Source: a plasmid. Taken from it: a DNA stretch of 18,967 bases. How positions within the stretch are numbered: the stretch's first letter is position 1; each line of letters opens with the position of its first letter. The notes under the pieces were generated by a model. That model was not told the DNA's origin. It made no database searches and was given only the letters and a program-made list of their open reading frames with translations. The stretch lies in the sequence record NZ_CP013937.1; one strand, written 5' to 3'. Of the stretch, positions 4,183 through 17,950 are shown piece by piece. A program made the translations under genes and the position numbers.

Positions 4183-4796
4183 ATAATCGAGATTAAGTAA
4201 ACCAGACATTGGTCTAGGCGGTCTGAAGCCAATCAGTCCGTGAGTTGATGCGACTGTTGTTGTACCAGTTCACGTACCACTCGACAGACACCCGGACATC
4301 ATCAATGGTCCCGTACTCTTCGTGATAAATCATTTCGCGCTTGATGAGCGAATGGAAGCTCTCGATACGAGCATTATCGTAAGGATGACCCTTACGGGAG
4401 TAAGAGTGATGTATTCCAGAGTTTTGTAATGTTCCTTCGAACAGGCTAGAAGTGTATTGGCTTCCCATGTCGCTGTGAATCATCTTTGGCTTACCCTTGG
4501 CTCTTAGAGCCTTAACTACGACGGATGTTGCGAATTCCTTGGTCATCTCTGGGCTTAGTCCGTATGAGACTACGCGACGCTTTTCTGGGTCATAGACGGT
4601 TGCCAGATAAACCCACTCACGATTCATCAACTGGATGTACGTAATGTCAGTTGCCAGAACGCCACTCAAATCATCCAATCATCCAACTTCTTCATGAGGT
4701 TGGGCTTTTGAGGTGTGTCAGTGGTTGTTGTTGGCTTCTTGTATGACTTCTTGACCATGCGAGATTTGAGATTGAGCTCATTCATGAGTTCCCAAA
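4183..4796 (-). mobile_element. IS3-family insertion sequence, truncated copy 2 (about 0.61 kb, direct repeat of copy 1)
   Basis: Near-identical to 1843-2456 at an offset of 2340 bp. It carries an 8-bp tandem duplication (tcatccaa) at about 4672-4688 that shifts the frame. It lacks the orfA start and the 67-bp left end, and abuts the hsdR remnant. Confidence 0.75.
4214..4678 (-). pseudogene. IS3-family transposase OrfB fragment (rve core)
   Basis: The 154-aa translation is about 97% identical to the copy-1 ORF. It is truncated upstream by the 8-bp duplication. Confidence 0.8.
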
Positions 4797-5651
4797 TTCT
4801 TTTTCAATCAACCCGTTTTGATCCATTTCACACATACGATCTAAAATTTGACGCGTTGCTTGAACTTGATATGAGCGCATGACCGTTAAATTATCATTGG
4901 CTGCATCCGGGATCATATTCACTGTTACTAAGCGGTGTAAAGCTGGAATACCCATCATCTCATGGATAAAGGTCATGGTATTCGTGACATCTTTACCTAC
5001 ATCGTCACGCCAACCAAAGGCAAAATCACGGTTATAAGAGTCACTATTCTTTGGTCGTGCAAAATAGTGCGCTGAATTTTGCGACAAGACAAACTGCACT
5101 TGCACAAAAGAAAAGAGTCCCGTGTACATGCCGTCACCGTCATACTTTTGGAACTGTTCAAACGCATTCCACTGGTTTCGCAAGGACTCATCTTTTTCTT
5201 CAATGTGGGCCACAGGTAGCCCGTTAATCAGCAACATGATATCAATTCGACGCTTAGAGCTGAGACTCGTTGCTAAATCCGTAAACGTAATTTGGTTAAC
5301 GACTTCATAACGTGAATGTCCACCAGCCACTTCATCACCATAGAAGATTTCAAGTTCTAGCTGCGTCCCATCATCACGATTCAACGGTACGGTCCCAACA
5401 CCACCCGTACCCGCCAACATGAGTTGCGCATCATACGGCGTTTTATTCTTCGTTAGTTCCAACTTCACTTGTTCAAACTCATTATCAGATAACGGAGTGT
5501 CTTCTAGTCGTTTGCGATTGTTGGCATTCAGAATATCTCGCCAGTGATCATATAACCGATCAACTGTTACACCAGAATAATCTGTTAGATATTCCCAACC
5601 TTCACTCTTTAGCTTGTCAATTACAGCTTGTTCAAATTTATCTTCCGCCAT
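4782..5651 (-). pseudogene. hsdR: Type I restriction enzyme HsdR, N-terminal about 285 codons, truncated by the IS3 copy
   Basis: MAEDKFEQAVIDKLKSEGWEY...RRIDIMLLINGLPVAHIEEKDE...LFSFVQVQFVLSQNSAHYFARP matches the HsdR N-terminal nuclease-like domain (compare EcoR124I [40 protein letters not shown]). The reading frame runs into the IS-derived sequence at 4796 and stops at 4782. No helicase domains, hsdM or hsdS are present. Confidence 0.8.
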
Positions 5652-5683: not shown

Positions 5684-5899
5684 CTATTTACCAAAACGCC
5701 ACCACTTTTTCGGTTTAGGTTGTGACTCCGGGGTGCTATTTTCAGGTTCCGGTTGTTTGTCTGACGTCACTTCTTTTTTACCATCATCATGCGGTGTCAT
5801 CGTTAAGGCTTTCAAGTCCTTAATTTCTGCCTTATATTCTTCGATCAGTTGTTTGTCCTGTAAGGCCAATCTTTGTTACTGATCTAATAAATTTTGCAT
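5684..5899 (-). CDS. Hypothetical 71-aa Lys/Glu/Pro-rich protein, possibly an IS3 OrfA-like leucine-zipper remnant
   Basis: ATG at 5897-5899 lies 12 nt downstream of copy B of the 67-bp promoter/RBS cassette, which supplies GGAG. Translation MQNLLDQVQRLALQDKQLIEEYKAEIKDLKAL...KPKKWWRFGK. It ends 33 bp before the hsdR start. Confidence 0.35.
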
Positions 5900-5913
5900 T
5901 TGGGATATTTGTG

Positions 5914-5980
5914 AAAATGCTCCTATGCTATTAGTTTACAGCGTAGAGGAAAATCTGTCCGTAAATCTAGCATAAGAGCA
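5914..5980 (-). repeat. 67-bp repeat family, copy B
   Basis: aaaatgctcctatgctattagtttacagcgtagaggaaaatctgtccgtaaatctagcataagagca. About 90% identical to copy A. Confidence 0.6.
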
Positions 5981-6645: not shown

Positions 6646-7129
6646 TGAACCCCAAAAATTGGAGTGAAGTTTAAGCGGCTAACTGGTTGGAAAGATTTCG
6701 GTATTGAACCGGAGTTTTTCCGGCCAGTTTTGTTTCTATCCGCTTGTTGTTGTAGTAATAGACATAGTTAGTTATGGAGGATTTTAATTCGTCATAACTT
6801 TGATAGTGGTTGTTATGCACCGTTCCTACCTTCAAGATGTGGAAGATACTTTCAGCCATTGCGTTATCTAGGCATGTCGCTTTGCGACTCATGCTTTGGA
6901 ACACACGGTTAGTCTTCAACAGTGATATATACTCATAATTTTGATATTGGAAACCTTGGTCAGAGTGAATTGTCATTCGATAACTCGATTCTGGCCTATT
7001 TTGTAGAAGCTCATCTAATGGCTTTGTGACGAACTCGACAGTTGGATGAAGATCGATATTCCAAGTGAGAACCTCACCACTATATACATCAATATAGGCA
7101 GTGAAATAAGCACGTTCTGCCATCGTGCC
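6646..7129 (-). mobile_element. IS3-family IS fragment (right end plus transposase C-terminus); a second degenerate end-copy lies at 7130-7175
   Basis: It begins tgaaccccaaaaattggagtg (TG...). The same tgaaccccaaaattg recurs in direct orientation at 7130. It encloses the rve C-terminal ORF. Confidence 0.65.
6671..7123 (-). pseudogene. IS3-family transposase OrfB C-terminal fragment (a different IS from the 1874/4214 copies)
   Basis: HSDQGFQYQ...MSRKATCLDNAMAESIFHILK...YYNNKRIETKLAGKTPVQYR is the integrase core with the D and E regions. It is 5'-truncated and has no orfA. Confidence 0.8.
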
Positions 7130-10067: not shown

Positions 10068-10219
10068 GCATTGTGTGTGGTTTGACATATGTATCTGGGA
10101 GTACCGTGGTCAAAAAGTTGATTTGGCATTTTTACAATAAGGAGGACTTCGGGAGTTACTTAGGTAATAAAGGAAGAGATAAGGTAATTCTGAAGTGGTT
10201 GAGTAATAAAAGAAGAAAG

Positions 10220-10245
10220 AATGCTCTTCTGCTATTAGTTTACAG
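10220..10245 (-). repeat. Repeat family core, copy C (aatgctcttctgctattagtttacag)
   Basis: It matches the first 26 bp of copies A and B, then continues gccgtataagcgc. A degenerate relative (tgctatta..cgtcatataagcgcc) lies at 7246-7272 just after the 7186-7243 terminator. Confidence 0.45.
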
Positions 10246-10298
10246 GCCGTATAAGCGCTTTTGAGCGCAATTAATCATCATCCATATAAAATATCGTC

Positions 10299-10371
10299 TA
10301 TAACGAATAAAACGCCATAAAAGGCTTACAAAGAGCTTTTTATGGCGTTTTATTCGTTATAGGTGTTTTTT
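10299..10371. terminator. Exceptionally long, near-perfect 25-bp hairpin followed by a T7 run
   Basis: tataacgaataaaacgccataaaag - 12-nt loop - cttttatggcgttttattcgttata (one bulged T), then ggtgttttttt. Confidence 0.65.
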
Positions 10372-10646
10372 TGCGCATATTAAAGTTAATTCCTTACTAA
10401 CCAAGAACATTTTATCTACATACGAGTTTAACGTATCAATTAACAATCAAATCACTAGTCTATTCTGAATAATCATATGACTCAAAACAGTAATGACTAA
10501 TCATTTTATTAAATGACCATCGGATCACAAAATAATGGCATTAAATCTTAAAAGCTTGAATTTACAAGCAATTATTTGCCAGCATCATAACCGAATGAAA
10601 TGAGGACAATGCGCACTTACACTCTTGACACCTGTCAATAGTAGTT

Positions 10647-10673
10647 TGCCAAGGATTTCATCCTTGGTTTTTC
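10647..10673 (+). terminator. Small rho-independent terminator-like hairpin; preceded by palindrome TTGACACCTGTCAA at 10625-10638
   Basis: ccaaggat-ttc-atccttgg then ttttt. The 14-bp palindrome contains a -35-like TTGACA. Confidence 0.45.
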
Positions 10674-10700
10674 CTTGTATCAGAAGGCTAACGCCAACTA

Positions 10701-11060
10701 TTAATTAATCACATTATGCAGGATCCAATGGCTATAAGATAACCGGGCACTCATCGTAATTAACCACGGATGATTGACTTCGAAAATTTGTATTTCCGTT
10801 TCTAAGTACAGGAGTGTTTTACCATGATTAAAAGTTAAAATCGGTGCTGGAAAATCAGGTCTGGTCGCAACCTGATGTACGCTTTGCCGTGAGTTCATCT
10901 CCCAACGTTCTTTTAGATCTTCTCGTGATAAAAGTTTTGGTAACTGCTCTTTCTCAACTAACACTTGTTTTGTGAGTTGTGCCGTTAATTCTTCCTTAGC
11001 CGCATTGGGATGCCAATCATTTAAAATATCATATGCGTTATTACCTAAATCTAATTCCAT
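10701..11060 (-). CDS. Hypothetical 119-aa protein with C-terminal excisionase/HTH_17-like (AlpA/Xis-type) region
   Basis: Strong RBS AGGAGGA lies 6 nt before ATG 11058-11060 (internal to track ORF 10701-11105). LLSREDLKERWEMNSRQSVHQVATRPDFPAPILTFNHGKTLLYLETEI resembles the Xis/AlpA HTH pattern. The assignment is tentative. Confidence 0.5.
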   Translation of the reverse strand: MELDLGNNAYDILNDWHPNAAKEELTAQLTKQVLVEKEQLPKLLSREDLKERWEMNSRQSVHQVATRPDFPAPILTFNHGKTLLYLETEIQIFEVNHPWLITMSARLSYSHWILHNVIN

Positions 11061-11101
11061 GAATAGTCCTCCTAATGTGTCATGGTTACAAGATAAAATA
11101 T

Positions 11102-11392
11102 TCACCGCGGATAGTAAACTTTACTATCATCACCATGAAATACTTCAATGCTCAAATGGTAATAATTATCATAGATACCAGCTTGATACATCGATTCCGT
11201 GATGTTGTGTAGCATGGGCGGTTCTAAGATACGTTCACGTAGCAACCAGAAATGTTCATTATCATTTTGAATAAACACACAGCACCGTTTATCTCTCACA
11301 TTAAACACGCGGATTTCACGGCCGTCATCATAGCGAATAATAGCTTGTAAGGATAAATTATCATTGGTCATGTACTCATCAAAATTAGTCAT
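11102..11392 (-). CDS. Hypothetical 96-aa protein, translationally coupled to the upstream 59-aa gene
   Basis: Its start ATG overlaps the upstream stop in an ATGA overlap at 11389-11392. I recognise no family. Confidence 0.55.
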   Translation of the reverse strand: MTNFDEYMTNDNLSLQAIIRYDDGREIRVFNVRDKRCCVFIQNDNEHFWLLRERILEPPMLHNITESMYQAGIYDNYYHLSIEVFHGDDSKVYYPR

Positions 11393-11568
11393 GATTTATC
11401 ACCAAAATAATGATCCAGTAATAGATAACCCAGTAGGTCAGTATCACCAGTATTATCCATGGTTGCATCAAAGGCATCTGCAAAATAAGTCTGGCTAGCT
11501 GTATCAGGGCCTTGTTTATCTGACACTGTAATGATGTTGTCTAATTGTGCCTTAGTAATCCTAGTCAT
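11389..11568 (-). CDS. Hypothetical 59-aa acidic protein
   Basis: RBS GGAGGT (rc of 11576-11581) lies 7 nt before ATG 11566-11568 (MTRITKAQLDNII...). The track ORF starts 5 codons upstream without an RBS. It is Asp-rich. Confidence 0.5.
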   Translation of the reverse strand: MTRITKAQLDNIITVSDKQGPDTASQTYFADAFDATMDNTGDTDLLGYLLLDHYFGDKS

Positions 11569-11757
11569 TAAAAATACCTCCATGGTGGTGCCAAAATGAA
11601 CAAATACGGTCTAATTTAGGAAGATTAGTTGGCGTTATTACCCAAAATCAATTTGATCTAACATTGTTTCACGACTTGCTTGATCTAACCCAAGATAAGT
11701 CAGTGTCATAGCCTCACTCGAATGATTCAATAAGTGCATGACTAAGCCAATATTATA
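11527..11757. repeat. 231-bp direct repeat, copy 1 (about 94% identical to 17213-17443); contains the last roughly 40 codons of an int gene (remnant)
   Basis: Aligned by eye, with about 14 mismatches. The minus strand of 11637-11757 encodes ...LVMHLLNHSSEAMTLTYLGLDQASRETMLDQIDFG*, identical to the integrase C-terminus at 17315-17440. Confidence 0.85.
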
Positions 11758-11786
11758 ATATTTTTACTTATTTAGAACTATTTCAT

Positions 11787-11808
11787 AAACTTGATGGACG
11801 TCAAGTTT
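11787..11808. promoter_or_regulatory. Palindrome AAACTTGA-N6-TCAAGTTT; candidate Crp/Fnr(Flp)-box at class-II position of the ATPase operon promoter
   Basis: Its centre lies about 41 bp upstream of the predicted TSS, given a -10-like TAATAC at 11824-11829. RBS AGGGAG at 11851-11856 and ATG at 11864. The cognate Crp/Fnr regulator is encoded last in the operon. Confidence 0.5.
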
Positions 11809-11863
11809 ATATCTCCCAAAAGTTAATACACTTTAGTTGAACTAAAATTAAGGGAGAAATCAT

Positions 11864-13714
11864 ATGAAACATAATATTCTTAAACATAAAAATAAAATTA
11901 CTAGTATCAGTGGCTTACTCATTGCTTTAGCACTAATCGCACACTTTATTTTTGCCAATACAACAATTTCTAATAGTGCTTTTATTATAGCTTCTATATT
12001 AGGCGTTACCCCCATTTCTTTACAGGCTTATCAGGCTATGAAAGTAAAAGTAGTAAGTATTGATGTTTTAGTAACGATAGCGGTCATTGGTGCTCTCTTT
12101 ATTCAAAATTATGAAGAATCAGCAATTGTTACTTTTTTATTTTTGTTTGGATCATATTTAGAACAACGAACACTTAACCAAACACGATCAGCTATTAAAG
12201 AGTTGACGGAAATGGCTCCAGAAACTGCTTTTAAGCAATTGACAGGGGGACAATTTGCAGAAGTAGATATTGATGAAGTAGAAGAAGGGGATATTCTCCT
12301 AGTAAAGACTGGTGCCAAGATTCCCGTAGATGGTAGGGTAACTACTGGAAAAGGATATGTAAATGAGGCTAATATCACAGGTGAATCTTTACCTTTAAAG
12401 AAAGAAAAAGACGATGAAGTATTTGCCGGTACTATTATGGACAACGGTACTATTCAAATAGTGGCTGATAGAGTAGGGGAAGATTCTACATTTGGAAAAA
12501 TTATTGACTTGGTAGAAGAAGCGCAGGATTCTAAATCAGAAGCAGAACGATTCATTGACCAGTTTTCTCGCTGGTATACACCTGCAGTACTTACAATTGG
12601 GCTGTTGGTTTGGGTATTAACCAAAGATACAGAACTTGCGATTACTGTATTAGTACTTGGTTGCCCAGGAGCCTTGGTAATTGGTGTACCTGTTTCAAAT
12701 GTTACAGGGATAGGAAATGGCGCAAAAAATGGTGTTTTATTTAAAGGTTCTGAAGTGATTAGTCATTTTGCCAATGCAGATACAGTGTTATTCGATAAAA
12801 CAGGTACCTTAACTGAAGGAAAGCCTGAAGTGAGCGATATTATTTATTATGGAAGTAATCAGGAGGAGGATTTATCTCTATTGCTTTCAGTTGAAAGTGA
12901 GTCTGATCACCCATTAGCTGTCGCTATTGTAAATAAATTAGCACAATATAAAGTAAGGCCTATAGAAAATACACAGGTTGTAAAAGGTGGGGGCGTAATT
13001 GCTCACGTAGATGGGCACGTTGTTTCAGTAGGAAATAAAACCTTAATGCAACAAGAAAGTATACCGCTATCTGATGATGTTCTTAAAAAATTGAATAAAT
13101 TAGAAAGAACCGGTAATTCAATTGTATTAACGGCAGTTGATCATAAGTTAATCATGTTAATGGGTATCCGCGACAAGGTTCGACCAGGTGTTAAGCAGGA
13201 CTTACAAAAATTAAAATCACTTGGTATTAAAAATCTCATTGTATTATCAGGTGATAACCAAGGTACAGTTAATTTAGTTAAAAAGGAACTAGGTTTAACG
13301 GAAGCCCATGGTGATATGCTACCAGAGGACAAACAAGCATTTCTAAAAAGACGACAGCACTCGGGTGAAATAGTTGTTTTTATCGGTGACGGCGTTAATG
13401 ACAGTCCCTCTCTGGCTACTGCAGAGGTAGGTATAGCTATGGGGAATGGAACAGATGTCGCAATTGAAAGTTCAGATATTGTTTTAATGAATTCTAACTT
13501 TAACCGCCTTCCTCATGCTTTAGGCCTAGCAAAAGTAACATATGCGAATATGCGACAAAATATTCTAATTGCTGTTGGCGTCGTGATAATACTATTGGTT
13601 AGTTTAATATTTAGTGAATGGATGTCTATGTCAATTGGGATGTTGGTTCATGAGGCCAGTATTTTAGTAGTTATTTTAAATGCAATGAGATTAAGAGGTT
13701 ATCAATTAAGATAA
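11864..13714 (+). CDS. Heavy-metal (Cd/Zn/Mn-type) P1B-type ATPase, CadA/MntA-like; no N-terminal HMA domain; atypical CPG in place of CPC
   Basis: 616 aa starting directly in TM helices. It has DKTGTLT and GDGVNDSPSL. The TM6 motif reads VLGCPGALVIGVPVS where CadA has GCPCALVISTPIS. Confidence 0.88.
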   Translation: MKHNILKHKNKITSISGLLIALALIAHFIFANTTISNSAFIIASILGVTPISLQAYQAMKVKVVSIDVLVTIAVIGALFIQNYEESAIVTFLFLFGSYLEQRTLNQTRSAIKELTEMAPETAFKQLTGGQFAEVDIDEVEEGDILLVKTGAKIPVDGRVTTGKGYVNEANITGESLPLKKEKDDEVFAGTIMDNGTIQIVADRVGEDSTFGKIIDLVEEAQDSKSEAERFIDQFSRWYTPAVLTIGLLVWVLTKDTELAITVLVLGCPGALVIGVPVSNVTGIGNGAKNGVLFKGSEVISHFANADTVLFDKTGTLTEGKPEVSDIIYYGSNQEEDLSLLLSVESESDHPLAVAIVNKLAQYKVRPIENTQVVKGGGVIAHVDGHVVSVGNKTLMQQESIPLSDDVLKKLNKLERTGNSIVLTAVDHKLIMLMGIRDKVRPGVKQDLQKLKSLGIKNLIVLSGDNQGTVNLVKKELGLTEAHGDMLPEDKQAFLKRRQHSGEIVVFIGDGVNDSPSLATAEVGIAMGNGTDVAIESSDIVLMNSNFNRLPHALGLAKVTYANMRQNILIAVGVVIILLVSLIFSEWMSMSIGMLVHEASILVVILNAMRLRGYQLR

Positions 13715-13777
13715 TTGATCTATATCAAGTATCTTAAAAAGAATGGCCTATATAATTTATTTAAAGGAGTGATAGAT

Positions 13778-14014
13778 ATGACTAAAGCAATATTAAAATT
13801 AGAAACATTAACTTGTCCATCATGTTTACAAAAAATCGAACGTGGCTTAAAACAGACTGCTGGTGTAAAAAAAGATTCTGTAAAAGTACTTTTCAATGCG
13901 AGTAAGGTAAAAGTGGATTTTGATGAAAATCAGGTCAATTTGAATACAATTGAAAAAGCAATTGAAGACTTAGGATACCCAGTAATTAGTTCAAAAGTAA
14001 AGGAAGGTGCATAA
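13778..14014 (+). CDS. Heavy-metal-associated (HMA) domain protein, CopZ/MerP-like metallochaperone
   Basis: RBS AAGGAG lies 8 nt before ATG 13778. Translation MTKAILKLETLTCPSCLQKIERGL carries a CxxC metal-binding motif in a ferredoxin-like HMA fold. The track ORF starts 21 codons earlier without an RBS. Confidence 0.85.
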   Translation: MTKAILKLETLTCPSCLQKIERGLKQTAGVKKDSVKVLFNASKVKVDFDENQVNLNTIEKAIEDLGYPVISSKVKEGA

Positions 14015-14015
14015 A

Positions 14016-14567
14016 ATGACGACGGTAAATGAAAGGCAAGAAAAATTAGCCGCCGAACAAGCATATAAAGAACACATTCATCATACTAAGATTAATTCTG
14101 CAGCTGTTACAGATCATATACTTGCTAATATTCATACATTACATGTAAAGTTGCATCAATATCATTGGTATGTAAAAGGCAAAAACTTCTATGCATTGCA
14201 TAATGTTTTTGAAAATTTATATAACGAGAATGAGGCATGGTTTGATAAAATTGCAGAACGCTTACTAGCTTCAGGATTTAAGCCAGCATCAACAACTACT
14301 GAATTTCAAGAATTTACAACGATTTCTGAAGATTCTTCGGAAAAATATTACACTGCTGATGAGATGGTCCTACAGATAGTAGAAGATTTTAGATCTAATC
14401 GTGAATTTACTATTCGTGCAATTCGCTTAGCACAAGAAGAAGGAAATGATGCTTTGGAAGATTCACTAATTAGTTATAAAGCTTATTTAGACGTAAATAT
14501 TTGGCAACTTCAAGCATTTATTAATAAGGATGCCTTAGAAGACGATGACTATATAGATAACGATTAA
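14016..14567 (+). CDS. dps: Dps-family (DNA protection during starvation / miniferritin) protein
   Basis: RBS AGGAAGG lies 8 nt before ATG 14016. LHVKLHQYHWYVKGKNFYALHNVFENLYNE is the Dps ferroxidase-centre signature (H..HW..G..F...H). It has an acidic C-terminal tail. Confidence 0.85.
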   Translation: MTTVNERQEKLAAEQAYKEHIHHTKINSAAVTDHILANIHTLHVKLHQYHWYVKGKNFYALHNVFENLYNENEAWFDKIAERLLASGFKPASTTTEFQEFTTISEDSSEKYYTADEMVLQIVEDFRSNREFTIRAIRLAQEEGNDALEDSLISYKAYLDVNIWQLQAFINKDALEDDDYIDND

Positions 14568-14583
14568 TTAGGAGAAAAACGGT

Positions 14584-15276
14584 ATGGCATACCATAATCA
14601 TCATAGTCATGTAGATTGTATACGTTTAGTGCCGATTTTCAATCATCTCAATGATGAACAAATGCATCTAATTGCTCAATCAGCGAATGAAGTACAATAC
14701 GTAAAGAATGAGCTATTATTTAGGTTTGGTGATAAAGATGACACATTATATATCATAAACAATGGACGTGTACGTATTTATAGCCTAAGTGAGTCTGGTC
14801 GTGAGCAAACCATACGTATCCTACATCCGGGTGATTTTATGGGGGAAGTTGCTGTTTTACAGACTGAAGGTTATCATTCGAATTATGCTGAAGCAATATC
14901 GGAAACAAGTATTTGTAAGATTCATAAAAAGGATTTAGATCAATATTTAGATCGCTATCCAGAAATCATGCGACGAATATTATCGGATATTACAAAACGG
15001 CTACAGTTATCAGAAAAACAAACTGTGCAAGTCAGTATTGAACCTGTTGAAGCTCGAATTATTGATTTTTTATCAGAAAATGTTGAAGATGAAAAAAACC
15101 ATACTTATGTGACTTTACCCATGTCAAAAAAAGATTTGGCTACTTACCTGGGGACAACTCCAGAAACAATAAGCCGTAAGTTCTCATCATTGGAAGAGAG
15201 AGGTCTAATTAAACGGCATACCCAAAAATGTGTTGAGATATTTGATTTAGATGAATTATTATTTGTATCAAGTTAA
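14584..15276 (+). CDS. Crp/Fnr-family transcriptional regulator, FLP-type (cNMP-binding domain plus C-terminal HTH)
   Basis: RBS AGGAG lies 9 nt before ATG 14584. The cNMP-binding beta-roll is followed by HTH_Crp (TYVTLPMSKKDLATYLGTTPETISRKFSSLEERGLI). Cys at positions 12 and 111 is consistent with FLP-like disulfide redox switches. Confidence 0.85.
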   Translation: MAYHNHHSHVDCIRLVPIFNHLNDEQMHLIAQSANEVQYVKNELLFRFGDKDDTLYIINNGRVRIYSLSESGREQTIRILHPGDFMGEVAVLQTEGYHSNYAEAISETSICKIHKKDLDQYLDRYPEIMRRILSDITKRLQLSEKQTVQVSIEPVEARIIDFLSENVEDEKNHTYVTLPMSKKDLATYLGTTPETISRKFSSLEERGLIKRHTQKCVEIFDLDELLFVSS

Positions 15277-15309
15277 GTCGATTTATACTTAAAAATAAGG
15301 ATATCGTTT

Positions 15310-15721
15310 TAAATGATGAACATGGCGGTACACAGTTCATCGTCACTAACCTAAGTCTTCCACAAAAAGACATCGTCCGTGTTTACCGCAAGCGTGCGGC
15401 GATTGAAGATATTATTCGCGAGCTTAAAGGGGGATTTTCCTTTGGCAAAACTGATAGCAGTTCATTTTTCGCCAACAAAGCGCGCATGTGGATCTCAGTA
15501 ATTGCATCAAACTTGATGCGGTTGATGAAGAGTATTGCATTGGACGACCAGCAACAATCGTGGACAATCAATACCTTTCGAGACCGTTTGTTAAAAATCG
15601 GTGGACGTGTGTCACTAAGCACGCCCGCAAGGTGATTTTGACGTTAGATAGCCGCATCCAAGAACAATTTGATGGTCTGTTCTGGCGAGCTTGGGAACGA
15701 CTAAATGCTTTGTGGCAATAA
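15310..15721 (+). pseudogene. IS1380/IS4-type DDE transposase, C-terminal roughly 135 aa only, with internal frameshift
   Basis: Frame 1 reads ...VYRKRAAIEDIIRELKGGFSFGKTDSSSFFANKARMWISVIASNLMRLMK...STPAR*. It continues in +1 as KVILTLDSRIQEQFDGLFWRAWERLNALWQ*. The pattern YRKR..IE..I.ELK....(S/A)N..R..I...A.NL is typical of IS1380/IS4 C-termini. It begins immediately after the flp stop. Confidence 0.6.
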
Positions 15722-15802
15722 AACAACGAAGTAGATTTTCAAAAAAATAGCAAAATCTGGCTGGTTTTAGTGTTCCTATTTTTCTCAAAAAACGCTCAAT
15801 CT

Positions 15803-15855
15803 AAAAAACACCCTGAAACTGTGCCAAGGTACTGGCAGTTTCAAGGTGTTTTATC
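15803..15855. terminator. Rho-independent terminator hairpin
   Basis: aaaaaacaccctgaaactg ... cagtttcaaggtgttttat: 15-bp stem with one mismatch. Confidence 0.6.
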
Positions 15856-15893
15856 ATATTTTACTGATTTAGCTGTGGTTAAAAATTTAGTGC

Positions 15894-15908
15894 ATGAATA
15901 ATCCGGGT
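15894..15908 (+). repeat. atgaataatccgggt, left copy of a 15-bp inverted repeat pair
   Basis: The reverse complement is at 16952-16966. A third direct partial copy aataatccgggt lies at 16681-16692, and a related gaaataatccggtt at 7216-7229. Confidence 0.5.
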
Positions 15909-16021
15909 TTTATTTGTTTCGTTTTTTAAACATTTTTAATCCGATGTGGAATTACCGATAATTGGTCACTTTTTTCTTATATATTGGTTTTATCACCACT
16001 GAGAGAAACTGGAGAAAATAA

Positions 16022-16507
16022 ATGAAAAAATACGTTTCAGCCATCGTCTACGGTGGCTTAGATGGCATTATCACGACGTTCGCAGTCGTTGCTGGATCGG
16101 TCGGTGGTAACGTTTCAAACATCGTTATCATCATTTTGGGATTCTCAAACTTATTAGCCGATGGCTTTTCAATGGGAGCCGGTGCCTACCTGTCAGCAAC
16201 ATCGGATAACAATCAATCAAAAAGTAAAGCATTGGCAGCTGGTATCGCGACATTCATTTCGTTTAACGTCTTCGGTTTAATTCCACTAGGTGCCTACTTA
16301 ATTACAAATGCGTTCATTCACGACAAATCCATCGCCTTTCCAATCGCCTTTGTCATCGTCGGTGTCTCTTTGGCGTTGCTAGGCTGGGTGAAGGCCAACC
16401 TGTCAGAGCAGAAAGTAAGAACAGAAATTCTACGCACACTTTCTGTCGGGTACGTCGCTGCAATTGTTGCTTATGGCGTTGGTATCTTACTGAATTATTA
16501 TTTGTAG
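16022..16507 (+). CDS. VIT1/CCC1-family (DUF125) membrane protein, putative Fe/Mn transporter
   Basis: RBS GGAG lies 7 nt before ATG. YGGLDGIITTFAVVAG is the VIT-family signature. It has about 5 TM segments and is short (161 aa) relative to typical members. Confidence 0.7.
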   Translation: MKKYVSAIVYGGLDGIITTFAVVAGSVGGNVSNIVIIILGFSNLLADGFSMGAGAYLSATSDNNQSKSKALAAGIATFISFNVFGLIPLGAYLITNAFIHDKSIAFPIAFVIVGVSLALLGWVKANLSEQKVRTEILRTLSVGYVAAIVAYGVGILLNYYL

Positions 16508-16510
16508 ACA

Positions 16511-16545
16511 AAAAACCTTGAATATTCAAGACGTTTTTCTTTTTA
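16511..16545 (+). terminator. Rho-independent terminator after the VIT-family gene
   Basis: aaaaaaccttgaatattcaagacg then tttttcttttt. Confidence 0.55.
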
Positions 16546-16951
16546 GATATTTAGTTATATGGTAATCAGTTATAGATTATTTAAGTCAAACAATCCTCGA
16601 CGCTTAGCTTCTTCTTTAGCTGCGTTCATTAAATCAGCAGAGTATAGCGCATCAGGGTGCTTGCCTGTCGATTCGTTAGAAATAATCCGGGTAAAATTTT
16701 AAATCATATTTTTAGAACACCTTTAATTGAGTCGACCTGTAATAGCTAACCATGTATACAAAGAAACGATATGTTATATTACGTCATCGAAAATGGTGTC
16801 CTGAGGGAGTTACTTTTAGTGGTTACCAACACGCCTGCTGACAAAAAACACTTTTTTGTAAAGAAAACCCCAAACAGGTGAGTAAATCTGTTCGGGGATA
16901 TCTAGAAAGACGCTCTATGGTCGAGAAAAGTGAGATGGTGTAGAACTTAAT

Positions 16952-16966
16952 ACCCGGATTATTCAT
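16952..16966 (-). repeat. acccggattattcat, right inverted copy of the 15-bp IR
   Basis: Reverse complement of 15894-15908. Confidence 0.5.
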
Positions 16967-16975
16967 CAAGACAAA

Positions 16976-17028
16976 CAAAAACCCGCTGAAACAGCAAGTT
17001 AATACCGTTTCAGCGGGTTTTGCGTTTT
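16976..17028 (+). terminator. Rho-independent terminator
   Basis: acccgctgaaac ... gtttcagcgggt gives a 12-bp stem, then tttgcgtttt. Confidence 0.65.
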
Positions 17029-17212
17029 CACCCGTTGGGTGAAAACCATAGGAGCTCTTTGTTATGATATTTTGTTAGTGAAAAACAAACCAAATACTCA
17101 AAAATTGGAGCGTCTAAAATTATGACTCAAAAGGTATTACCTAGCAACCCTTTAGTTGCAGTTTCAGACAATGGGGCACCAATTACCTCGGATGGTGGCA
17201 ACGTGTAATGAT

Positions 17213-17443
17213 GTTGTCTAATTGTGCCTTAGTAATCCTAGTCATTAAAAATACCTCCATAGTGGCGTCAAAATGAACAAATACGGGCTAATTCAGGGAG
17301 ATTAGTTGGCGTTATTACCCAAAATCAATTTGATCTAACATTGTTTCTCGACTGGCTTGATCTAACCCGAGATAAGTAAGCGTCATAGCCTCACTCGAAT
17401 GATTCAATAAGTGCATGACTAAACCAATATTATAGTTTGATTG
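17213..17443. repeat. 231-bp direct repeat, copy 2 (3' end of the intact integrase gene plus about 100 bp downstream)
   Basis: See copy 1. Confidence 0.85.
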
Positions 17444-17950
17444 CGTATAAACGCGATAGGCACCTGTTTTACGCATGGTGTGTGTGCCCAGATAGTTAAT
17501 TCCTAATAGGTCACCAACACGTGCCATCACCTTATAAAACTGCTTCTTTGTGATATGTCGATCTGGATGGGACGTTGAGGGAAATAACCAATCCGAATTG
17601 ATATTCTGTTGGACTAGCCAATCATGATATTGCAGCAAGTCTTGTTGCACTGGCTTTAAATATAACGTGTTCGCTTTGCCTGTCTTTTTATCATGAATAA
17701 AGGCCGTGTTTTTAACAGACCCATCGGGATTATAGACATCAGATTTCTTTAACGTCATCACATCACTCACCCGCAGTAGAGTGGCTTTGCCAACTTGAAA
17801 GATAGTGTAGTTGCGGCGACCCGCCCGAAAACTATCTAATAAGGTGTCTTGCACCATTTTTAAGACGTTAGAGTCTTTGATTGGGAGTACGATTTGCTGC
17901 ACCATAATATTTTTACCTTTCTGGTTCCCATTATTATTTGATTTAATCAT
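17315..17950 (-). CDS. int: Tyrosine-type site-specific recombinase / small phage-integrase-family protein
   Basis: 211 aa. The catalytic R...HxxR...Y set is plausible: RVSDVMTLK, HTMRKTGAY, HSSEAMTLTYL. The likely true start is internal, at ATG about 17906 (MVQQIVLPIK), which has an AAAGG RBS. Confidence 0.85.
   Translation of the reverse strand: MIKSNNNGNQKGKNIMVQQIVLPIKDSNVLKMVQDTLLDSFRAGRRNYTIFQVGKATLLRVSDVMTLKKSDVYNPDGSVKNTAFIHDKKTGKANTLYLKPVQQDLLQYHDWLVQQNINSDWLFPSTSHPDRHITKKQFYKVMARVGDLLGINYLGTHTMRKTGAYRVYTQSNYNIGLVMHLLNHSSEAMTLTYLGLDQASRETMLDQIDFG

Follow-up and report, generated by a model that had tools for sequence, protein, structure and literature searches.

Theta-type plasmids of lactic acid bacteria (LAB) of the pMN1/pLEUM1 type are mosaics in which cargo genes are bounded by remnants of insertion sequences (IS) and by a repeated small gene annotated as a "site-specific integrase". 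The same modules occur in many genera of LAB at 97-99% identity, and module exchange has been discussed for the integrase (PMC5702455). A comparable picture is given by islands and prophages with attL/attR sites at the 3' end of a target gene, where the element is flanked by an intact gene and, in direct orientation, by a dead 3' fragment, with an integrase gene next door. Here we analyze 18,967 nt of the plasmid record NZ_CP013937.1 (hereafter the window; all coordinates are window positions), in which metal and oxidative-stress genes are flanked by two direct repeats containing the 3' end of such an integrase gene, int, and which resembles both kinds of system.

A first-pass annotation of this DNA had described an island bracketed by repeats through which it could loop out or be amplified. 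From comparison of sequences, we consider it probable that the window carries two independently truncated copies of an int module flanking a patchwork of metal and oxidative-stress genes, assembled by stepwise plasmid mosaicism and not as a discrete mobile island. The repeats then appear to be by-products of mosaic formation, and not integrase attachment sites or a mobility device. No earlier description of the 232-bp repeat, its two illegitimate edges, or its internal crossover was found in the literature searched; the kind of mosaicism itself is known.

The repeat and the module from which it derives

The features that make up the two repeat copies (DR1 and DR2) and the int module are the following.

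10609-10642: distal boundary of the module, CAATGCGCACTTAC and then a 9-4-9 palindrome, ACTCTTGAC-ACCT-GTCAATAGT (10621-10642)
10701-11105, minus strand: orf134, last gene of the int module, 119 amino acids from the annotated start at 11060, with a weak match to a DNA-binding family
11102-11392, minus strand: orf96, module gene, present in the intact modules of loci L004, L005, L017, and L041
11389-11583, minus strand: orf64, module gene, 59-64 amino acids, its first 19 codons inside DR1
11527-11758: DR1 (copy 1), 111 nt downstream of int plus a 121-nt int 3' remnant; apparently mosaic, with a crossover at 11720-11745
11638-11758, minus strand: the int' remnant, last 39 codons and stop codon of a tyrosine recombinase gene, catalytic-tyrosine motif kept; aligns to int 17315-17435
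17204-17435: DR2 (copy 2), first 19 codons of orf64, spacer, and last 121 nt of the intact int
17315-17905, minus strand: intact int, a 196-amino-acid tyrosine recombinase that is essentially catalytic domain only (PF00589); overlaps DR2

DR1 and DR2 are direct copies that align without gaps over 232 bp with 13 mismatches (94.4% identity). Their longest identical runs are 57, 49, and 41 bp, and the binomial probability of such likeness arising by chance is about 1e-96. The segment enclosed, 11759-17203, measures 5445 bp, in agreement with the 5.45 kb originally given. The earlier start of copy 1 at 11527 also holds on re-alignment, while the earlier coordinates of copy 2 (17213-17443) lay about 9 nt too far to the right. 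The repeat had been described as made of the 3' end of an integrase gene, which is correct for the inner 121 nt (the last 39 codons and stop codon of int) and incorrect for the outer 111 nt, which span the int-orf64 spacer with its ribosome-binding site and reach codon 19 of orf64. Copy 1 was rightly recognized as a dead remnant, without a start codon and without the remaining parts of the active site, and copy 2 as part of an intact int. The view that two distinct int modules are involved is likewise borne out, with copy 1 running into the orf64-orf96-orf134 of one and copy 2 into the int of another.

The first-pass annotation had also raised the prospect of an assembly artefact, with a collapsed or chimeric contig behind the repeat copies. 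We give this next to no credence. Short-read assemblers do break in the repeat, as in contig L101, which ends inside it, and nothing beyond this was found in favor of an artefact. The same layout is present at 98-99.99% identity in three complete circular plasmids (NZ_CP012874.1, CP158360.1, and CP090956.1) as well as in over 10 draft or metagenome contigs of independent origin, where two different backbones follow to the right of int (an oleate hydratase gene or a RelE/XRE pair). The window as such matches Weissella plasmid records and is 98.7% identical to the Weissella cibaria plasmid pMKC01 and 99.99% identical, over the 8.3 kb compared, to contig BJEF01000013.1 of GCA_005405525.1.

The unit int-orf64-orf96-orf134 is a conserved module of LAB plasmids. 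A hypothetical empty site was built by joining 10600-11526 to 17204-17950. Five PLSDB plasmids, from W. confusa, W. cibaria, and Lactiplantibacillus paraplantarum, carry it as one contiguous stretch at 94-95% identity, annotated as an integrase and three hypothetical proteins. The module is also intact in L017, L041, and L042, which are loci from species-representative genomes, so that it is found, without the island, in at least 8 other replicons in all. Its genes are not inseparable, since orf134 directly follows int, without orf64 or orf96, in about 10 other loci. The protein encoded by orf134 matches phrog_4745 ("DNA binding protein") weakly, at E = 6e-4, and orf96 has no family match above threshold in profile searches of Pfam, NCBIfam, and phrog.

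Read against this module, the window seems to hold two truncated copies in direct orientation, the repeat being the part that both have retained. On the left, int upstream of codon ~157 would be lost, and everything from the int tail through the spacer to orf64-orf96-orf134 retained. On the right, the module would be retained from int to codon 19 of orf64, with the rest lost.

Repeat edges and the probably separate histories of the two copies

At the outer edge of DR2 (17203/17204), a truncated IS1380 transposase gene breaks off at codon 28 and meets codon 19 of orf64. IS1380 sequence continues to ...GGCAACGTG and the module begins with TGTAATG, with 2 bp of microhomology (TG). At the inner edge of DR1 (11756-11758), codon ~157 of int is joined to the promoter region of a heavy-metal ATPase gene, the first gene of a metal and stress operon, with int homology extending to 11757 and operon homology starting at 11756. 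Elsewhere the left end of this operon abuts an IS3-family end (L008), a different sequence (L009), or an IS30 3' fragment followed by another int remnant (L019). Because an IS1380 transposase and varied operon neighbors meet at these positions, the edges of the repeat read as illegitimate joins in IS-rich surroundings and not as recombination cores. The earlier view that the repeat is not a target-site duplication is upheld.

The join between int' and the operon is found well beyond the window. By tblastn, the ATPase gene of L022, L023, L026, L029, L040, and L049 is adjoined by the same int remnant (Int residues 158-196), and the block 11638-17901 is 97-98% identical in about 25 plasmids of Leuconostoc, Weissella hellenica, and Liquorilactobacillus (pLEUM1-type). 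In these pLEUM1-type plasmids, homology ends at the int' stop codon, beside an unrelated hairpin, and the repeat is merely 120 nt long at 86% identity. The int'-operon join thus occurs without the 111-nt part of the repeat in Leuconostoc and in most carriers. Being widespread in many genera, it appears to be older than the long repeat.

The composition of copy 1 points in the same direction. When the window int' is compared with that of pLEUM1, all 13 mismatches fall in the distal 82 nt (11638-11719), and the adjoining 147 nt (11720-11866) are identical (Fisher p ~1e-6). The distal part is closest to int genes that are followed by the spacer (3-5 mismatches), and the proximal 39 nt next to the join have 1 mismatch to int genes of the hairpin class versus 3-5 to those of the spacer class. 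This pattern marks copy 1 as an apparent internal recombinant with a crossover at 11720-11745. A different pairing is seen in W. cibaria SP7 (L049), where the left side has orf134-96-64, spacer, int tail, and operon as in the window, and the right side has a different int (83% identity) without the spacer. Because the int'-operon join occurs without the 111-nt part and copy 1 is mosaic, the two copies do not appear to have been made by one event. A second crossover, within the operon, would separate a left part resembling L049 from a right part resembling pLEUM1. It is weakly suggested by mismatches to L049, which reach 7 and 5 per 200 nt beyond 14927, and is not claimed here.

Relatives with block B bear on the edge of copy 2. 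This block is a 260-bp non-coding sequence (16692-16951) that in the window is present once, between the VIT transporter gene and the IS1380 5' remnant. A second copy lies just beyond orf134 in pMKC01 (L001 3001-3228), where block B forms a second direct-repeat pair (96.5%) around the operon region, and in W. cibaria SP7 (L049 11677-11937). In contig L101 (ENA ERZ772849 NODE_6427, 6687 bp), the IS1380 5' fragment is missing, and the operon, the IS1380 3' remnant, and VIT are accompanied by block B, a 271-nt spacer, and orf134-96-64. The same block B and 271-nt spacer stand beside orf134 in L001 and L049. This arrangement supports an origin of the copy 2 edge by an IS1380-associated deletion of a once complete module. 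Both ends of L101 fall, by calculation, in the 232-bp repeat (~11594 and ~11529), which is equally explained by a repeat-induced assembly break and by a closed 6.6-kb loop or tandem unit.

These observations can be arranged in three steps. First, an old illegitimate join connected the int tail to the operon promoter region, as its presence in many genera shows. Second, an IS1380-associated deletion would have fused the 5' end of the transposase gene to codon 19 of orf64 beside another int; the join is seen directly, and the deletion is what we infer from it. Third, in the W. cibaria/W. confusa lineage, homologous recombination within the old int tail (11720-11745) would have replaced its distal sequence by that of an intact module, placing the 111-nt spacer and orf64-96-134 beside the operon and so producing the long repeat of 94% identity. 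The mosaic is visible in the alignment, and the direction of the exchange is suggested by a few sites.

Several points weigh against this sequence of events. Its order and direction are read from a small number of diagnostic sites, and the int'-operon join in the window has no IS sequence left beside it. Genes or remnants of int flank cargo repeatedly (L007, L011, L022, L089), which leaves room for some Int-dependent process. Finally, the arrangement of left flank, repeat, cargo, repeat, and rest of int is the exact outcome of a single Campbell-type integration, where a circle bearing the cargo together with a single 232-bp piece of the module recombined into an intact int module and loop-out would be the reverse event. 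This was essentially the model of the first-pass annotation. Intact modules exist as possible targets for such a crossover, and the identical runs of 57, 49, and 41 bp within the repeat also speak for it. We nonetheless hold a Campbell-type origin to be distinctly unlikely. Most carriers have the int'-operon join without either the spacer or orf64-96-134, copy 1 is internally mosaic, L049 pairs the left structure with a different right int, and the data point to DR1 and DR2 lineages that separated before either became joined with the operon. Moreover, the database modules that are intact lie too far from the window halves to be excision products, and scans for circle and tandem junctions came back empty.

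The figures behind these last two points are as follows. The contiguous modules of PLSDB are 94-95% identical to the window overall and 91-96% identical to its halves, and because of this distance they are relatives and not excision products. A comparison with related plasmids lacking the island, which the first-pass annotation had called for, yields contiguous modules, none of them with matching alleles. The exact junction of a deletion product gave 0 matches in GTDB genomes and JGI metagenomes, and the exact circle or tandem junction gave 0 matches in JGI metagenomes, both in scans run without a positive control. The exact orf96 allele is accompanied by the ATPase operon at every place with a readable upstream neighbor. 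Of the 10 places listed for the exact Int allele, 7 have the VIT/Flp region after int and 3 have other cargo there, and none has orf64-96-134 directly after int. The proposed looping out or amplification through the repeats thus finds no support, with no matching-allele empty site, circle, or tandem junction in PLSDB, GTDB genomes, or JGI metagenomes. A 232-bp repeat at 94% identity could allow rare RecA-dependent deletion or duplication, and loop-out by homologous recombination is possible as a rare event.

In other replicons, it is the 3.55-kb operon (11756-15303) and the 6.27-kb block 11638-17901 that recur as units, and not the repeat-bounded 5.45 kb. The "island" does not behave as a unit, and its ends differ between replicons. 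Among carriers, the left end lies on the 11527 side or at 11638, 11756, 11763, or 11782, and the content to the right varies too. Several Leuconostoc matches that start at the outer edge of DR1 (11527) were considered as a recurrent breakpoint and rejected, since local BLAST showed that DR1 had been matched to their DR2 and that their true left end is 11763. For annotation, this means that an island flanked by direct repeats is not to be read here as a mobile element. The practical consequence, a possible loss of the cargo through rare repeat-mediated deletion, is modest.

The integrase as recombinase and as portable homology

The product of int is a clear member of the tyrosine recombinases. 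It matches PF00589 (Phage_integrase) with 65.7 bits against a gathering cut-off of 27.1, over residues 43-197 of the 211-amino-acid open reading frame that results from an alternative upstream ATG at 17950, and it matches the phrog_216 integrase at 1.8e-34. The motifs of the R..HxxR..H..Y signature can be read in the predicted sequence as LLRVSD, HTMRKTG, LNHSS, and LTYLG. Assignment to the Xer or FimB/E subfamilies in NCBIfam fell below cut-off (XerA, 51.9 vs 220 bits; XerC, 28.1 vs 335; the FimB/E-type PRK09870, 23.2 vs 221).

A further feature of the module is the palindrome at its distal end. The boundary at 10609-10642 is sharp and recurrent, with at least 4 different sequences abutting it in other replicons. 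The 9-4-9 palindrome lies about 100 nt past orf134 and is present in 18 of the 18 loci that carry orf134. Its arms co-vary between loci (ACTCTTGAC/GTCAAGAGT versus ACCCTTGAC/GTCAAGGGT), and the 4-nt spacer varies freely. It is the only conserved palindrome tied to the module and a candidate protein-binding or recombination site. The window has a single copy (10621-10642), outside the repeat, and neither this palindrome nor a TCTTGA-N6-TCAAGA-like site is present at the repeat edges.

Further to the left of the module, at 10288-10372, is a 39-nt inverted repeat (87% complementary, 7-nt loop). A related copy is found near the RepB region in L002 and L004. It may be an origin-associated or terminator structure.

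To see how int behaves in other replicons, we surveyed 79 loci drawn from the 479 matches to Int (81-99% amino acid identity, in many Lactobacillales genera) among species-representative genomes. The 80 full-length int copies fall into at least 8 upstream and at least 8 downstream flank classes, which assort independently, and nucleotide homology between loci stops at the start and stop codons of int. Remnants of int lie beside cargo repeatedly, but their breakpoints are many (reference positions 298, 403, 461, 475, and 619). A breakpoint hot spot at int codon ~157, prompted by the int tail in L089, was rejected, as the break in L089 is about 14 nt away and other remnants break elsewhere. The pattern fits a role of int as portable homology for recombination, and it neither proves nor excludes catalysis by Int. 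At the least, then, the repeated small integrase gene would act as a portable stretch of homology where these plasmids recombine.

The survey bears on whether the 5.45-kb segment is a cassette inserted or excised by the adjacent Int, as with islands whose integration leaves the 3' end of the target gene duplicated. An intact tyrosine recombinase gene does overlap DR2, direct repeats flank the segment with int at one end, L007, L011, L022, and L089 have int or its remnants next to other cargo, and flanks reassort exactly at the ends of the int reading frame. In the same vein, the authors of the pMN1 paper speculate that the integrase exchanges modules (PMC5702455). We judge an attL/attR-type origin very unlikely all the same. 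Both informative edges join unrelated DNA (codon 28 of the IS1380 transposase and the ATPase promoter), the ends of the segment differ between replicons where the same two ends would be expected everywhere, and int remnants break at many points. The only conserved palindrome of the module is not in the repeat, and neither a matching-allele empty site nor a circle was found in the databases searched.

A broader proposal is that Int, orf134, and the co-varying palindrome would together form a recombination system, either a dimer-resolution site with its recombinase or a cassette-exchange device, that actively reshuffles LAB plasmid modules. We regard this as unlikely. If it were true, the int tails beside cargo would be footprints of this system and not just relics of homologous recombination. 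The integrase module is in any case the part more deserving of follow-up, its role in the literature searched being a matter of speculation (PMC5702455).

The cargo and its comparison with known systems

Between the repeats, and in part reaching their edges, the window contains the following.

11756-15303, plus strand: core operon unit (promoter, ATPase, HMA, Dps, Flp), 3.55 kb, which recurs in other contexts
11787-11808: palindrome with a predicted FNR/Flp-type box, AAACTTGA-N6-TCAAGTTT, the box being TTGAT-GGAC-GTCAA at 11791-11804, upstream of the ATPase gene
11864-13714, plus strand: P1B-type heavy-metal ATPase, 616 amino acids, CPG motif, no fused HMA domain (PF00122, PF00702)
13778-14014, plus strand: HMA-domain metallochaperone, 78 amino acids (PF00403, 51.3 bits; RefSeq annotation in a related record)
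14016-14567, plus strand: Dps/ferritin-like protein, 183 amino acids (PF00210; RefSeq name Dps-type protein)
14584-15276, plus strand: Crp/Fnr-family (Flp-type) regulator, 230 amino acids (PF00027, PF13545, PF00325)
15302-15749, plus strand: IS1380-family 3' remnant, positions 1196-1641 of the pEM3 reference segment, with the 3' end of the transposase gene and the right terminus
15750-16951, plus strand: VIT segment between two IS1380 ends, with the VIT1 gene at 16022-16507 and block B at 16692-16951
16952-17205, plus strand: IS1380-family 5' remnant, pEM3 reference positions 160-413, with the left terminus and the first 28 transposase codons (17123-17203), cut off at DR2

The 5.45-kb segment therefore reads as a composite of the 3.55-kb operon unit, the IS1380 3' remnant, the VIT segment, and the IS1380 5' remnant. 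The gene list of the first-pass annotation is confirmed for the ATPase, HMA, Dps, Flp, and VIT genes and for one IS1380 remnant; the second remnant, at 16952-17205, where the segment has its right end, had been overlooked. From family membership, the region would be a plasmid-borne cargo for metal efflux and peroxide protection. It would make up a transferable stress package of metal efflux, Dps, and VIT on food-fermentation plasmids of Weissella, Leuconostoc, and Liquorilactobacillus.

The operon unit keeps the same ends beside at least 4 different left neighbors and several right neighbors, its right end being constant at ~15303 in L007-L011, and it is 86% identical in a Staphylococcus succinus plasmid. 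The ATPase scores well above cut-off for TIGR01525 (547.8 bits vs 346.25) and TIGR01512 (461.2 vs 313.5), and it lacks a fused N-terminal metal-binding domain. Its CPG motif is found in the sequence VLGCPGALV, at a place where Cu- and Zn/Cd-type pumps usually carry CPC. By family membership it may be of the Zn/Cd type. The Dps-like protein reaches 85.2 bits for PF00210 (cut-off 24.5) and 49 bits for Dps equivalog models, whose cut-offs are 114-170. The translated Flp-type regulator has Cys12 and Cys111. The palindrome with the FNR-type box has perfect 8-bp arms and is kept in every operon variant, including L010, where homology starts only at 11782. Because it is conserved in all variants, the operon is probably regulated by its own Flp through this predicted box. 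The VIT1 protein (PF01988, 119 bits) is a probable Fe/Mn exporter. A scan for promoters and terminators was uninformative (34 sites vs 30.7 expected), and no RNA families were found in the window with Rfam.

The IS1380 3' remnant comprises the last 446 bp of the IS, 96.9% identical to the intact element of pEM3 (L012), with gene calls matching PF01609 and PF13701, and the 5' remnant is 98.0% identical to the same element. The two fragments are in permuted order, with their termini directed at the intervening 1.2-kb VIT segment. An origin of both from one insertion was considered, by comparison of the flanks and a search for a duplicated target, and rejected, as the flanks differ and the sequence from 15750 onward is unrelated to the "X" spacer. 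Nor does the segment have the structure of a composite transposon, which would be bounded by two complete IS copies with a target-site duplication: it has two IS1380 fragments, both internal, whose flanks differ.

The rest of the window is equally mosaic. Three fragments of IS3-family transposase genes (rve domain) lie at 1843-2488, 4183-4796, and 6671-7123. Two of them are direct repeats of 98% identity around genes for an NAD(P)H-binding protein and an HxlR regulator, and a truncated type I restriction R subunit gene (4782-5651) adjoins the IS3-family fragments. An 86-nt sequence ending in ...CTAGCATAAGAGCA is present in 2-3 copies (2536-2621, 5895-5980, and 10216-10246; 84-90% identity), and a similar ending (GTATAAGAGCACCC) abuts the left end of the operon in L009. 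This repeat is possibly an IS terminus.

Set beside the islands with attL/attR sites, the window differs in that its repeat edges join an IS1380 fragment and a promoter region and not core or arm sites. The ends of the segment are also inconstant, the duplicated gene is the integrase gene itself, and no matching empty site was found. In size and in consisting of a catalytic domain, the 196-amino-acid Int is like the small one-site tyrosine recombinases (Xer/XerA, invertases of FimB/FimE size, and Cre-type resolvases), and it has weak XerA, XerC/D, and FimB/E-type matches. Unlike them, it lies far below the family cut-offs, and its candidate palindrome has a 9-4-9 geometry as opposed to the usual spacer of 6-8 bp.

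For the cargo, the closest counterparts are the flpA/flpB operons of Lactococcus lactis and flp-dpsB of Lacticaseibacillus casei, in which an FNR-like regulator is likewise associated with Dps and metal-handling genes and with an upstream FNR-type box, which in the window is read from the sequence. Flp proteins of L. lactis and L. casei are redox-switched regulators tied to peroxide and metal stress, flp lying beside dpsB in L. casei, and a flpA flpB double mutant of L. lactis is hypersensitive to H2O2 (summarized in PMC7162690). In contrast to these chromosomal flp operons, the copy in the window is borne on a plasmid, has spread horizontally, and is coupled to a P1B ATPase with a CPG motif and a separate HMA protein.

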